Below, one piece after another: positions 23,376 to 40,284 of a DNA stretch of 43,984 nucleotides; the stretch's first letter is position 1; each line of letters starts with the position of its first letter. The notes beneath the pieces were generated by a model, which searched no databases, had not been told where the DNA came from, and saw only the letters and a list, made by a program, of their open reading frames with translations. Source of the stretch: Escherichia phage UAB_Phi78. A program made the position numbers and the translations under genes. The stretch lies in the sequence record GU595417. One strand, given 5' to 3'.

Positions 23376-24578
23376 ATGAGTACCCCAAATAACCTGACCA
23401 ACGTTGCAGTTTCCGCTTCCGGGGAAGTAGATAGTCTTCTCATTGAGAAGTTCAACGGTAAGGTCAACGAGCAGTACCTGAAGGGCGAAAACATCATGTC
23501 CTACTTCGACGTACAGACCGTCACTGGCACCAACACTGTGAGCAACAAATACTTGGGTGAAACCGAGTTGCAGGTACTGGCACCGGGTCAGTCTCCGGCT
23601 GCTACCTCTACTCAGGCCGATAAAAACCAGTTGGTAATTGATGCCACTGTTATTGCCCGTAATACCGTTGCTCACCTGCACGATGTACAGGGTGACATTG
23701 ACAGCCTGAAGCCGAAGCTGGCAACCAACCAAGCCAAGCAACTGAAGCGTATGGAAGATGAGATGCTGATTCAGCAGATGATGTTGGGTGGTATTGCCAA
23801 CACTCAAGCTAAACGTACCAACCCGCGTGTTAAGGGTCATGGCTTCTCTATCAACGTAGAGGTTGCAGAAGGTGAAGCACTGGTGAACCCGCAGTACGTA
23901 ATGGCTGCTGTTGAGTTCGCGCTGGAACAGCAGTTAGAGCAGGAAGTGGATATCTCCGATGTGGCTATCCTGATGCCGTGGCGCTACTTCAACGTACTGC
24001 GTGATGCAGACCGTATCGTTGACAAGACCTACACCATCAGCCAGTCGGGTGCAACCATTCAGGGCTTCACCTTGTCCAGCTACAACTGCCCGGTGATTCC
24101 GTCCAACCGTTTCCCGAAATACTCTCAGGGCCAGTCTCACCACCTGCTGTCCAATGAGGATAACGGCTATCGTTATGACCCGCTCCCGGCAATGAATGGT
24201 GCTATCGCTGTATTGTTTACGGCTGATGCGCTGCTGGTTGGTCGCTCTATTGATGTGACTGGTGACATCTTCTATGAGAAGAAAGAGAAGACCTACTACA
24301 TTGACACTTTCATGGCGGAGGGTGCAATCCCGGATCGTTGGGAGGCTGTGTCTGTTGTTACAACTAAGCGCAATACGACCACGGGTGCAGTAGAAGGCAA
24401 CGATGGTGCGCAGCATACTATCGTCAAGAACCGAGCACAGCGCAAGGCTGTATATGTCAAGAGCGCTAACCCGGCAGGTGCTGCTGCTGCTAACCTGTCT
24501 GCTGAAGATCTGGTTGCTGCTGTTCGTGCTGTGATGGCTAACGACATCAAGCCGACTGCAATGAATCCGACCAAGTAA
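23376..24578 (+). CDS. major capsid protein
   Basis: 400 aa; very strong RBS TAAGGAGGT; follows the scaffold gene and is followed by the strongest terminator in the window. Confidence 0.9.
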   Translation: MSTPNNLTNVAVSASGEVDSLLIEKFNGKVNEQYLKGENIMSYFDVQTVTGTNTVSNKYLGETELQVLAPGQSPAATSTQADKNQLVIDATVIARNTVAHLHDVQGDIDSLKPKLATNQAKQLKRMEDEMLIQQMMLGGIANTQAKRTNPRVKGHGFSINVEVAEGEALVNPQYVMAAVEFALEQQLEQEVDISDVAILMPWRYFNVLRDADRIVDKTYTISQSGATIQGFTLSSYNCPVIPSNRFPKYSQGQSHHLLSNEDNGYRYDPLPAMNGAIAVLFTADALLVGRSIDVTGDIFYEKKEKTYYIDTFMAEGAIPDRWEAVSVVTTKRNTTTGAVEGNDGAQHTIVKNRAQRKAVYVKSANPAGAAAANLSAEDLVAAVRAVMANDIKPTAMNPTK

Positions 24579-36483: not shown

Positions 36484-36769
36484 CAAACACGCCGCTACGG
36501 AAGATGAGGTAGGTAAGCTACATAGTGCTATCACCAATCTTTTCAACAAGAAAGCTGCTGCAATCCTCGCTGCGGTAGAGGAAGACCCTGATGCAGCAAT
36601 TGCGCTGGTGTCAGGTAAGGACATGGGTGCCATGTGTAAGTGGGTGCTAGATAATGGCATTACGGCTACACCTGCTGCACAGCAGGAAGAGTCTGCACTG
36701 TCTAAGCGCCTTGCTAAGATCAAAGCAGCATCTCAAGGTAAAGTAATCCAATTTGCTAAGGAGGCTTAA
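36470..36769 (+). CDS. terminase small subunit (candidate)
   Basis: GTG 36470, 7 nt after AAGGAG; about 100 aa; lies immediately upstream of and coupled to the large terminase, as for T7 gp18. The track ORF begins upstream at 36392. Confidence 0.5.
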   Translation: MASHNKHAATEDEVGKLHSAITNLFNKKAAAILAAVEEDPDAAIALVSGKDMGAMCKWVLDNGITATPAAQQEESALSKRLAKIKAASQGKVIQFAKEA

Positions 36770-38667
36770 TGGCTAGAGCAAGGGAGTCACAAGCTGAAGC
36801 CCTTGCCCGTTGGGAAGCCCTGCATGAGTTACAGCAAACTTTTCCGTACACTGTAGCAGGGTTACTCTCATTTGCTCAGGTTGTAATTAATACTTTAATC
36901 ACTGGCAACCCAGACCTGAACCGGGTACAAGCGGATATTCTGAAATTCCTCTTTGGAGGGAACAAATACCGGATGGTAGAGGCACAGCGTGGTCAGGCTA
37001 AGACAACCATTGCAGCTATCTACGCTGCGTTCCGTATCATCCACGAGCCACATAAACGTATCATGATTGTGTCTCAGACAGCGAAGCGAGCAGAAGAAAT
37101 CGCCGGGTGGGTTATCAAAATATTCCGTGGTCTGGACTTCTTGGAGTTCATGTTGCCTGATATCTACGCAGGTGACAAGGCTAGTATAAAAGGCTTTGAA
37201 ATCCACTACACATTGCGTGGTAGCGACAAGTCTCCATCCGTTGCTTGCTACTCTATTGAAGCAGGTATGCAGGGTGCGCGTGCAGATATCATCTTGGCGG
37301 ATGACGTAGAGTCGTTGCAGAACTCTCGTACTGCCGCAGGTCGTGCTCTCTTAGAAGACCTTACCAAGGAATTTGAATCAATCAACCAGTTCGGTGATAT
37401 CATCTACTTGGGGACACCTCAAAGCGTAAACTCCATATACAACAACCTCCCGGCACGTGGTTATCAGATTCGCATCTGGCCCGGTCGCTATCCTACACTA
37501 GAGCAGGAGGCTTGCTATGGAGACTTCCTAGCGCCGATGATTCGTCAGGATATGATTGATGACCCAAGCCTACGCTCCGGCTACGGCATCGACGGTACAC
37601 AAGGCGCACCGACCTGTCCTGAAATGTACGATGACGAGAAGCTCATTGAGAAGGAAATCTCTCAGGGTACAGCTAAGTTCCAGTTGCAGTTCATGCTGAA
37701 CACACGTTTGATGGATGCCGACCGCTATCCTCTTCGTCTTAATCAGCTTATCTTGATGAGCTTTGGTACTGACGTAGTGCCGGAGATGCCGACTTGGAGT
37801 AACGACTCGGTAAACCTTATCAGCGACGCGCCGCGCTTCGGGAACAAGCCCACAGACTACCTGTATCGGCCTGTGCCGCGTCCGTATGAGTGGCGGCCTA
37901 TTCAGCGTCGGCTGATGTATATCGACCCGGCAGGTGGCGGTAAGAACGGCGACGAGACGGGCGTAGCCATTGTGTTCCTGCTGGGAACCTTTATCTACGT
38001 CTACAAAGTCTTCGGCGTACCGGGCGGATACTCCGAATCGGCCCTCAGTCGCATTGTGAGAGAGGCAAAGCAGGCGGAGGTAAAAGAGGTCTTCATAGAG
38101 AAGAACTTCGGTCATGGTGCGTTTGAGGCGGTAATTAAGCCATACTTCGAACGTGAGTGGCCTGCCGAGTTGAAAGAAGATTACGCCACTGGTCAGAAAG
38201 AGGCCCGCATCATTGAGACGCTGGAGCCGCTTATGTCCGCACACCGCATCATCTTCAATGCCGAGATGATCAAGCAGGATGTCGATAGCGTCCAGCACTA
38301 CCCTCTTGAGATTCGCATGAGCTACAGCCTGTTTGCTCAGATGTCGAACATAACCCTTGAGAAAGGATGCCTGCGGCACGATGACCGCTTAGACGCGCTG
38401 TATGGCGCTATACGGCAATTAACCTCTCAGATAGACTATGACGAGGCTAACCGGATAAATCGTCTCAGGGCGAAGGAGATGCGCGAATATCTGGAGATGA
38501 TGACCGACCCTCTACGTCGCCGGGAGTTCTTCACAGGACAAGACCACGGTTATCGAAAACAAGTGAACACGTCAGTGGCAATGCAGCGCCGAGTCTACGG
38601 AAATGCGCCGACGATGAGAATCAAGTCTCGAAATACTCTTTCTTCAAGAATATCAAGGACTTGGTAA
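36769..38667 (+). CDS. terminase large subunit
   Basis: 632 aa; AAGGAGG RBS; size and position equivalent to T7 gp19. The 269-aa antisense ORF inside it is discounted. Confidence 0.9.
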   Translation: MARARESQAEALARWEALHELQQTFPYTVAGLLSFAQVVINTLITGNPDLNRVQADILKFLFGGNKYRMVEAQRGQAKTTIAAIYAAFRIIHEPHKRIMIVSQTAKRAEEIAGWVIKIFRGLDFLEFMLPDIYAGDKASIKGFEIHYTLRGSDKSPSVACYSIEAGMQGARADIILADDVESLQNSRTAAGRALLEDLTKEFESINQFGDIIYLGTPQSVNSIYNNLPARGYQIRIWPGRYPTLEQEACYGDFLAPMIRQDMIDDPSLRSGYGIDGTQGAPTCPEMYDDEKLIEKEISQGTAKFQLQFMLNTRLMDADRYPLRLNQLILMSFGTDVVPEMPTWSNDSVNLISDAPRFGNKPTDYLYRPVPRPYEWRPIQRRLMYIDPAGGGKNGDETGVAIVFLLGTFIYVYKVFGVPGGYSESALSRIVREAKQAEVKEVFIEKNFGHGAFEAVIKPYFEREWPAELKEDYATGQKEARIIETLEPLMSAHRIIFNAEMIKQDVDSVQHYPLEIRMSYSLFAQMSNITLEKGCLRHDDRLDALYGAIRQLTSQIDYDEANRINRLRAKEMREYLEMMTDPLRRREFFTGQDHGYRKQVNTSVAMQRRVYGNAPTMRIKSRNTLSSRISRTW

Positions 38668-38686
38668 TTAGGGGACACTATAGGAG
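38666..38686 (+). promoter_or_regulatory. SP6-type phage promoter (variant)
   Basis: aattaggggacactataggag, directly after the terminase stop. Confidence 0.75.
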
Positions 38687-38757
38687 GAGGCCCAGAGAAT
38701 AAGAGAAATAACAAGGATAATATAGGTTAACCTAGGTTATATAGGTTACTATAGTAT

Positions 38758-38777
38758 GGGTGTACTCCTGTACACCC
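38758..38777 (+). other. perfect leader hairpin
   Basis: gggtgtac-tcct-gtacaccc: 8-bp perfect stem in the 5' leader downstream of the promoter at 38666. Confidence 0.6.
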
Positions 38778-38819
38778 TATTCCTTACTTCCTTACTATAC
38801 TTACATAATAGGAGAGAGA

Positions 38820-39095
38820 ATGTCTAATAGCTATAGTACACAACCTCTTACAGGTAAGTCTGCTCGTAAGCAGGTACAACCTGTGAGTGAAGCACTAATG
38901 CTTCCTGTAATCTCAAAAGAGGAGGCTAGTAAGAAAAGCAATGTTATTAATGATGCCACCAAATCAGGCAAACAGAAAGGAGCCATGGTGTGTCTTGACT
39001 CATCTGGTGCATTAAGTATTGCTATTGCAGTTGATGACAAAGAAGATTCTAATTGGCTGTCCGTTACAGCGGGCACTTCTATTACCCCAGCTTAA
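38820..39095 (+). CDS. hypothetical small protein, paralogue A (about 92 aa)
   Basis: ATG 38820 with AGGAGAGAGAA RBS; shares SGKQKGAM......G....IAIA with the next gene. Confidence 0.6.
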   Translation: MSNSYSTQPLTGKSARKQVQPVSEALMLPVISKEEASKKSNVINDATKSGKQKGAMVCLDSSGALSIAIAVDDKEDSNWLSVTAGTSITPA

Positions 39096-39110
39096 GAAGA
39101 GGAGGATTAC

Positions 39111-39398
39111 ATGGCTAAATATGGTGAAGGTTCTGTTACTGGTCAGGCTTTTCGAGTAAAGGCAGTACAAACTATTGCAACGGCAATCCCCATGCCTGTT
39201 GTTGCTGAAGCAGACCTTAAGAAGAAAGATCACCCTATCAACATTAAACACCTATCTGGTAAGCAGAAGGGTGCGATGATTGCTGTTGAGAAAGAAGGCC
39301 CAACCCTGTATATTGCTATTGCACGTGGTAGTGAACCTACTGACCCTTGGGATACAACCACTATGGAGGGAGACCCTGTCACTCCAACAGGGGACTAA
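39111..39398 (+). CDS. hypothetical small protein, paralogue B (95 aa)
   Basis: AGAGGAGGA RBS; paralogous to the upstream gene. Confidence 0.65.
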   Translation: MAKYGEGSVTGQAFRVKAVQTIATAIPMPVVAEADLKKKDHPINIKHLSGKQKGAMIAVEKEGPTLYIAIARGSEPTDPWDTTTMEGDPVTPTGD

Positions 39399-39400
39399 TA

Positions 39401-39745
39401 ATGCTTAACAAGTACTTCAAGCGTAAAGAGTTCGCTTGCCGTTGTGGATGCGGCACATCCACTGTTGATGCTGAATTACTACAGGTAGTCACAGATGTGC
39501 GTGAGCACTTTGGTGCTCCTGTGGTTATCACTTCTGGGCATCGCTGTGCTAAGCACAACTTAAATGTTGGTGGCGCTCGTGGCTCCAAGCATCTGCTTGG
39601 CATTGCTGCTGACATTAACGTGAAGGGTGTATCTCCTATACGGGTGCGAGAGTACCTATGCAATAAGTATCCTGACAAGTACGGCATTGGTGCTTACACG
39701 AACTTCACACACATCGATGTGCGCTCTAACAAGGCTAGGTGGTAA
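39401..39745 (+). CDS. endolysin, zinc peptidase M15 family
   Basis: SGHRCAKHN...GSKH...AADI...THIDVR zinc-binding His/Asp pattern of M15 peptidases; ATG 39401 (the track starts at 39347). Confidence 0.8.
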   Translation: MLNKYFKRKEFACRCGCGTSTVDAELLQVVTDVREHFGAPVVITSGHRCAKHNLNVGGARGSKHLLGIAADINVKGVSPIRVREYLCNKYPDKYGIGAYTNFTHIDVRSNKARW

Positions 39746-39882: not shown

Positions 39883-40009
39883 GAAGGTAGTAGCAGCACT
39901 GGTAGGTTTGGTGGTAGCGTTGGTTTCTGTCGGCATGGGTGTTGAGTTTGGCGCTCAGACTGCCGATGCAGTTACCAGTGTTGTCTGCCAAGCCGTAGGC
40001 TGTGAATAA
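39863..40009 (+). CDS. small membrane peptide (48 aa)
   Basis: GTG start 6 nt after GAGGG; a basic N-terminus followed by a hydrophobic segment (VVAALVGLVVALVSVGMGV). Confidence 0.3.
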   Translation: MKLLKSKKVVAALVGLVVALVSVGMGVEFGAQTADAVTSVVCQAVGCE

Positions 40010-40211
40010 ACTTCTTAAGGTGCTGGCAGGTCTACTTGGCCTGCTGGTTGCCTACAAGCGAGAACAAGAGCAGAAGGAGGCTCAACGTGAAGCGAATCAT
40101 GCTAGCGACAATCCTGCTGATTGGTTCGCTGATCACTTCCGGGTGCGGGACGGCGTTACCAGAACGCCCAACCAAGCCGACGCTGACGGCAGTGTACGAG
40201 GTGGACGATAA
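40002..40211 (+). CDS. putative i-spanin (Rz-like)
   Basis: N-terminal transmembrane segment LLKVLAGLLGLLVAY followed by a charged region; GTG start overlaps the upstream stop. Confidence 0.5.
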   Translation: MNKLLKVLAGLLGLLVAYKREQEQKEAQREANHASDNPADWFADHFRVRDGVTRTPNQADADGSVRGGR

Positions 40212-40284
40212 GGTCTGCTTCAGCAAGCCTGATGCTACACAACTTGGACTGTACATTTTATCGCTAGAACGCGGCTACAATTAA
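40086..40284 (+). CDS. putative o-spanin (Rz1-like lipoprotein) overlapping the i-spanin in the +1 frame
   Basis: GTG 40086, 7 nt after AAGGAGG; KRIMLATILLIGSLITSGC signal peptide with lipobox-like SGC, then a Pro-rich mature part. Confidence 0.5.

Follow-up and report, generated by a model that had tools for sequence, protein, structure and literature searches.

Two small paralogous genes between terminase and endolysin in Escherichia phage UAB_Phi78 probably encode trimeric minor capsid proteins of SP6-like podophages

What are the two small genes that separate the large terminase gene from the endolysin gene in Escherichia phage UAB_Phi78, and why are there two of them? An earlier note on this DNA, made from its letters, had offered a virion-associated or a lysis-timing role for the pair, here called orfA and orfB. 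In this study, we analyzed both genes in sequence record GU595417 (the window, that is, the whole stretch of 43,984 nucleotides, nt), a complete SP6/K1-5-like podophage, and compared them with their relatives. Our analyses suggested that the products are probably, at odds of roughly 60%, trimeric cement or anchor proteins of the capsid surface (minor capsid decoration proteins) in the form of two non-equivalent paralogues. The broader statement that they have some structural role in the virion can be made with considerably more confidence. The two genes and their translation signals are as follows.

38820-39095, + strand: orfA, 91 amino acids (aa), of the gene-1 lineage (K1-5 gp41, Kp7 gp45, SP6 gp42)
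39111-39398, + strand: orfB, 95 aa, of the gene-2 lineage (K1-5 gp42, Kp7 gp46, SP6 gp43)
38810-38814, + strand: Shine-Dalgarno sequence AGGAG of orfA, 5 nt 5' of the ATG, read off the sequence
39100-39105, + strand: Shine-Dalgarno sequence AGGAGG of orfB, 5 nt 5' of the ATG, read off the sequence

The evidence from virions comes from phage Kp7, whose gp45, gp46 and gp47 were identified by mass spectrometry in bands of purified virions and were set apart from the tail proteins (bioRxiv 10.1101/2024.05.19.594906). This preprint was the only item that we found in the literature on the capsid structure or proteome of SP6, K1E and K1-5 that mentions these proteins. In the Kp7 record (ON148527.1), two of the three are annotated as 'minor capsid protein' and the other as 'minor capsid protein with Ig-domain', and their genes lie between the large terminase gene (TerL) and the endolysin gene, the same place as orfA and orfB. 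The immunoglobulin-like (Ig) domain of the third paralogue matched the Ig of the T5 decoration protein pb10 (5lxk, 8zvi; E 1e-16 to 1e-17), as computed on a locus that comes from a Klebsiella phage and has 99.4% DNA identity to Kp7. With orthologues at the same locus found in purified virions and annotated as minor capsid proteins, the virion-associated role proposed earlier became the option that fits best.

If the pair instead encoded non-structural late proteins, such as helpers of assembly or packaging or anti-defence factors, their detection in Kp7 would be carry-over. This explanation draws on the position of the genes, which follow the terminase and are not part of the main block of head genes, on their fairly fast evolution (dN/dS, the ratio of nonsynonymous to synonymous rates, of 0.3-0.5) and on the fact that no structure places the family on a particle. 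We nevertheless consider it improbable, as three separate paralogues were identified from the purified Kp7 virion bands, the N-terminal domain is fused to display modules in a manner typical of surface-anchored virion proteins, and decoration proteins occur as separate small genes in other Autographiviridae too.

Membership of both proteins in one family was supported by profile searches. The PHROG 2725 profile matched orfA over residues 1-91 (E 6.4e-38) and orfB over residues 1-94 (E 1.4e-44), and a profile built from alignment A1 scored 125.6 and 154.2 bits, respectively. orfA shared 74% identity with K1-5 gp41 and 44% with Kp7 gp45, its best Kp7 match; orfB shared 82% with K1-5 gp42 and 47% with its best Kp7 match, gp46, and had 110 close homologues across metagenomes and genomes. 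The two genes are the orthologues of K1-5/K1E gp41 and gp42. The gene pair itself is ordinary for SP6/K1-5-like phages, and the family is already known but poorly characterised.

The two proteins were also similar to each other, with 33/89 identities in BLASTP (37%, E 4e-15) and a Smith-Waterman score of 129, against a mean of 25.7 (standard deviation 4.6, maximum 50; z = 22) in 2000 shuffles. The paralogy that the earlier note had proposed passed this test, and orfA and orfB are true paralogues. Other details of that note were largely borne out: the strong ribosome-binding site claimed for each of the two adjacent open reading frames (ORFs) is the AGGAG or AGGAGG 5 nt before the ATG, and the length of orfB is 95 aa as given, whereas orfA has 91 aa rather than about 92. 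Within the proposed conserved block, SGKQKGAM and IAIA are identical in both proteins, but the leading 'P.PV..E' is only partly common, since orfA reads L-PV there and has K where orfB has E. In comparison with K1-5, dN/dS was 0.47 for orfA and 0.33 for orfB, which points to purifying selection on both genes.

The databases give this family a quite different name. PHROG 2725, RefSeq and many GenBank records call it acetyl-CoA acetyltransferase (thiolase), a propagated name that is the sole argument for such an enzyme. Thiolases have about 390 aa, so that orfA (91 aa) and orfB (95 aa) reach roughly one quarter of that size. No thiolase family appeared in the Pfam search even at E <= 1, no match was found among Protein Data Bank (PDB) sequences, and no thiolase was among the fold matches. 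The identity is refuted by domain content and size, and we assign it a negligible probability. The Pfam search of orfA and orfB gave sub-threshold noise only (DUF6342, E 0.01; SRP54, E 0.03), and single-sequence and profile searches of the PDB with orfA, orfB, alignment A1 and a Kp7-type short paralogue yielded no meaningful match; at the top were an S-layer protein (E 0.24) and Atg18 (E 0.03). The family is without a Pfam entry, a solved structure or a detectable fold relative. The misleading name of a metabolic enzyme could wrongly flag SP6-like phages in safety screens, and the annotation needs correcting; about 190 sequenced SP6-like phages carry these genes, and many of those phages are candidates for therapy against E. 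coli K1, Salmonella, Klebsiella and Proteus.

Domain architecture in the wider family points to trimers. Searched with a profile, 1.8 billion representative proteins yielded 215 family members, and a hidden Markov model (HMM) scan of domains covered the best 150 of these together with the phage-encoded proteins. It returned 102 short single-domain proteins and 25 proteins longer than 125 aa with one detected domain, which in most of them is N-terminal with the extension after it. At least 23 proteins carried three tandem domains in one chain of 260-300 aa, and many of the 19 proteins with two detected domains had the length of such triple fusions. The C-terminal extensions of the family comprised Ig-like domains, Gly-X-Y collagen repeats (in contig L007) and the Sf6 tail-needle knob PF16532 (E 2e-30 and 5e-43); by eye, the tails of Era103 gp48 and Tola gp63 resemble coiled coils, and the Tola protein is named 'head fiber protein' in one record. 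Of these partners, collagen helices and the Sf6 knob exist as obligate trimers.

Triple fusions were found directly 3' of a T7-type TerL in metagenomic contigs L007, L008, L015 and L017; the Logan contigs are short (0.9-5.7 kb), which is enough to place the fusions next to TerL. Additional genes accompany them. In L017 (540-2627), the triple fusion after TerL is followed by a second one with a 130-aa extension; in L015 (4542-5718), by a gene with one domain and a Gly-rich linker; and in L007 (1050-2680), by a single domain with the collagen repeats. An HNH_3 homing-endonuclease gene (L009, 143-583) lies immediately 5' of a triple-fusion family gene in another metagenomic contig. Scans of IMG/VR with P0116 and alignment A4 retrieved no triple-fusion relatives, and P0179 (794 aa, 8 repeats), by eye an unrelated Ig-like repeat protein, was set aside as a false positive.

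AlphaFold2 was run on a single subunit and on a fusion. orfB alone reached a mean predicted local distance difference test score (pLDDT) of 68, with about 83 in the core and less than 50 in the N-terminal arm. The triple fusion P0116, with a 37-sequence alignment, reached a pLDDT of 90 and a predicted template modelling score (pTM) of 0.86, and its N-terminal arms were confident, with pLDDT rising from 61 to 92 across the first three 10-residue blocks. According to this model, the three beta-rich domains are equivalent and form, in a defined arrangement, a predicted single-chain pseudo-trimer. For the family, association with trimers was thus found in the collagen repeats, the Sf6 knob, the triple fusions and the high-scoring P0116 model. 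Furthermore, the fusion domains clustered by position (d1, d2 and d3), and gene 1, gene 2 and gene 3 formed clades of their own, a pattern which indicates that the subunits are non-redundant and the three positions not interchangeable. Neither the neighbour-joining tree nor tblastn recovered a one-to-one orthology between d1-d3 and genes 1-3. None of the known decoration folds (gpD, Soc, the Ig of Hoc and pb10, Dec, the jelly-roll cement fold, alpha-claw) was among the listed matches to the module of about 90 aa, the fold of which is apparently novel.

Several observations weigh against a place of orfA and orfB on the capsid surface. The oligomeric state of orfA and orfB themselves is deduced by homology, from relatives only. 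The major capsid protein ORF of the window (23376-24578, 400 aa) matched PDB entry 7y3t, 'phage major capsid protein' (E 5e-179; a 363-aa chain, 7 chains), the capsid of a close relative, in which sequence search found only major-capsid chains; such searches found no chain of the orfA/orfB family anywhere in the PDB. In addition, tail fibres too can carry Ig, collagen and knob domains, and the Ig paralogue is named 'tail protein' in some records. The main competing explanation is a virion-associated trimeric anchor on the tail, neck or portal vertex, comparable to anchors of whiskers or side fibres, with the short forms as plugs or adaptors. We consider this unlikely, although somewhat less so than a non-structural function. 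A position on the capsid surface and a stabilising role there remain the probable properties of orfA and orfB.

The genes are widespread and constant in position. By tblastn, the family was present in 188 phage records, from Escherichia, Klebsiella, Salmonella, Proteus, Vibrio, Erwinia, Pseudomonas, Pectobacterium and Aeromonas phages, and its genes came directly after TerL in every phage record opened. The order 3' of a T7-type TerL and 5' of lysis genes was seen in the window, K1-5, Tola, a Kp7-like Klebsiella phage, Kp7, SP6, phi-A318, Era103, Njord and mutPK1A2, and in the metagenomic contigs L007, L008, L015 and L017. The number and length of the genes after TerL differed among phages as follows.

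UAB_Phi78 window and K1-5: two short genes
mutPK1A2: two short genes and a third of 225 aa (145-aa extension)
SP6: gp42, gp43 and a truncated gp44 of 81 aa
Kp7 and relatives: two short genes and a third of 178 aa with an Ig domain
Era103: one short gene and one of 232 aa
Njord: one short gene and one of 210 aa
Tola: a gene of 147 aa and a short one
phi-A318: one short gene

When the arrays of Kp7, mutPK1A2 and SP6 were compared, the longer third paralogue was located between orfB and the endolysin gene, a place where UAB_Phi78 has none. The third gene has been lost from UAB_Phi78, as from K1-5 and K1E, and the two bare subunits of the proposed anchor remain. SP6 gp44 (L005, 3298-3543), annotated as hypothetical, matched PHROG 2725 at profile positions 8-62 only (E 1.7e-9) and is a truncated third family paralogue.

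In a neighbour-joining tree of the isolated domains, orfA grouped with K1-5 gp41, mutPK1A2 p52, Kp7 gp45 and SP6 gp42, and orfB with K1-5 gp42, mutPK1A2 p53, SP6 gp43 and Kp7 gp46. Because both lineages are common to SP6, K1-5, mutPK1A2 and Kp7, the duplication is ancient and predates these genera; the local duplication followed by divergence that had been suggested for this DNA is in that sense not a recent event. One metagenomic homologue, P0110, is a chimera with an orfA-type N-terminal half (MSNSYSTQPLTGKSARKQ...) and an orfB-type C-terminal half (...LYIAIARGSEPTDKWDATTMEVTPVTPAGD), which suggests recombination between paralogues or gene fusion by deletion.

The upstream region gives the pair signals of its own.

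38667-38687, + strand: promoter ATTAGGGGACACTATAGGAGG for an SP6-type phage RNA polymerase; it begins on the final base of the large terminase ORF
38688-38819, + strand: 5' leader of about 130 nt with TAGGTTA repeats, a small hairpin, a conserved hairpin and a pyrimidine-rich tract
38758-38777, + strand: the conserved leader hairpin, GGGTGTAC-TCCT-GTACACCC followed by TATTCCTTAC, with a perfect 8-bp stem

The promoter is one of six matches to the SP6-type consensus in the window, where 0 were expected (100 shuffles), and it is aligned and conserved in K1-5, SP6, mutPK1A2 and Kp7. A promoter of their own and a leader with a perfect hairpin, both described in the earlier note, were therefore recovered. 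K1-5, SP6 and Kp7 retain the hairpin through compensatory changes; the counterparts at the same place in SP6 (GGGAGGTA/TACCTCCC) and Kp7 (GGGTACTCT/AGAGTACCC) have different, equally perfect stems, with three stem pairs altered on both sides and the pairing preserved. The folding energy of the whole leader was not unusual against shuffles (z = -0.65), and a search of the leader in Rfam returned no family (best preQ1-II, E 0.11, well under its gathering score). Within the leader, support was confined to the local hairpin at 38758-38777, by covariation.

This hairpin looks terminator-like or RNA-stabilising. A simple scan labelled it terminator-like by its stem, loop and TATTCCTTAC tail, and it may act in attenuation of read-through, polymerase pausing or RNA stabilisation. 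In Vibrio phage phi-A318 (L011), TerL and the single family gene are separated by a hairpin (2405-2450) annotated as 'terminator Tphi-2'; as this is the equivalent position, the element is conserved beyond Molineuxvirinae. Two further structures were observed nearby. Three TAGGTTA repeats at 38724-38750 flank a AGGTTAACCT palindrome, forming a second small hairpin (near 38728-38748) which K1-5, SP6 and Kp7 retain in part, and another terminator-like hairpin (TGTCCGTTACAGCGGGCA plus CTTCTATTAC) lies at 39058-39075 inside the 3' end of orfA. The number of terminator-like hairpins in the region was at chance level (2 found, 1.5 expected). The dedicated promoter together with the strong ribosome-binding sites is consistent with a high-copy structural product.

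The genes on either side, between which the pair had been correctly placed, are listed below.

36769-38667: large terminase (TerL), the upstream flank of the pair
39401-39745, + strand: M15 peptidase endolysin, directly 3' of orfB (Pfam PF08291, E 9e-33)

Adjacency to the M15 endolysin and the spanin genes is all that favours the other role suggested for the pair, that of lysis-timing regulators (antiholin-like proteins or regulators of the endolysin). Neither protein has a transmembrane or signal segment, the maximum Kyte-Doolittle mean over 19 residues being 1.39 for orfA and 1.12 for orfB, which disfavours a holin or antiholin role; the grand average of hydropathy was -0.27 and -0.35, respectively. 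Moreover, the family follows TerL despite different lysis genes (a transglycosylase in Tola, lysozymes in Njord and Era103), its Kp7 homologues are virion proteins, and its fusions carry Ig, collagen and knob display domains, nothing related to lysis. We therefore consider the lysis-timing suggestion very improbable. Further downstream, a spanin-like pair occupies 40002-40284 of the window. It consists of a 69-aa ORF (40002-40211) with an N-terminal hydrophobic segment and an overlapping out-of-frame ORF (listed at 40036-40284), whose lipobox-like motif LITSGC suggests an embedded o-spanin.

The window as a whole carries genes for RNA and DNA polymerases, portal, major capsid protein, tail tube and internal virion proteins, as well as adaptor, terminase, a lysis cassette and two tailspikes. 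Over segment 38600-39800, identity was 99.2% with Salmonella phage vB_SenAt-pSL2 and 82-87% with K1-5-like Vectreviruses.

As minor capsid decoration proteins, orfA and orfB would probably work in the following way. A module of about 90 residues would make up the whole protein, or an N-terminal anchor, in minor capsid proteins of SP6-like podophages (Molineuxvirinae, Colwellvirinae). Both genes would be transcribed late, from their own promoter for the phage RNA polymerase through the conserved structured leader, and translated from strong ribosome-binding sites. The products would then form trimers, either homotrimers of each paralogue or mixed ones, and attach to the outside of the T=7 HK97-fold capsid as cement or decoration, with the extended N-terminal arm and its conserved TG[QKD] motif probably taking part in assembly or attachment. 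In many relatives, the third paralogue would carry one of several displayed parts on this anchor: an Ig-like domain, a collagen triple helix, a coiled-coil-like fibre or an Sf6-type knob.

A further, tentative extension of this scheme, which we think more doubtful than the scheme itself, is that the module represents a structurally new class of decoration, a trimer of non-equivalent subunits built from one gene, from two or three genes that have diverged, or in one chain by triple fusion. The T=7 lattice has several classes of 3-fold and quasi-3-fold positions (60 penton-adjacent, 60 hexon-only and 20 strict 3-fold), and different ones might then be occupied by the paralogues, or by bare and display-bearing trimers. 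If true, the family would exemplify evolution from homo-oligomer to hetero-oligomer to single-chain pseudo-oligomer, and would offer a natural modular scaffold for the display of Ig, collagen or knob domains on podophage heads. If confirmed, it would add a new class of decoration protein, a compact trimeric anchor naturally fused to several display domains, and a small handle for phage display and capsid engineering in SP6/K1-5-type vectors.

Among known systems, the nearest are the homologues themselves. Kp7 gp45-47, K1-5/K1E gp41/gp42 and SP6 gp42-44 share with orfA and orfB the locus, the promoter, the leader hairpin and the gene-1 and gene-2 lineages; Kp7 and mutPK1A2 have three genes whereas UAB_Phi78 and K1-5 have two, and the third gene of SP6 is truncated. 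First, T5 pb10 and T4 Hoc follow the same logic as the third paralogue of the family, an N-terminal anchor with a C-terminal Ig-like display domain. The match to pb10 is confined to the Ig part, and the N-terminal domain of the family is unrelated to it by sequence and without a PDB match. pb10 and Hoc bind hexamer centres as monomers, whereas the orfA/orfB family is apparently trimeric, and orfA and orfB have no Ig domain. Second, other Autographiviridae (T7 supergroup) carry decoration proteins of their own, such as alpha-claw and alpha-paw (gp44/gp43) of PhiM1, gp55/gp54 of Ar-KM and those of HRP29. The PhiM1 and Ar-KM pairs are functionally analogous, each consisting of two small, separately expressed proteins, of which one is bare and the other bears an extra arm or spike domain; these proteins are helical dimers, whereas for the orfA/orfB family a beta-rich structure with short helices and a trimeric state are predicted, and deposited structures have neither sequence nor fold in common with it. 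Third, the trimerization domain of collagen XV/XVIII (multiplexin) is also among the closest known systems. Finally, lambda gpD and T4 Soc are small cement proteins that sit as trimers at 3-fold and quasi-3-fold sites, and the same cementing role is proposed here for orfA and orfB, which resemble them in size (about 9-11 kDa), in a probably high copy number, in a probably trimeric state and in an N-terminal arm that is disordered in the subunit alone.
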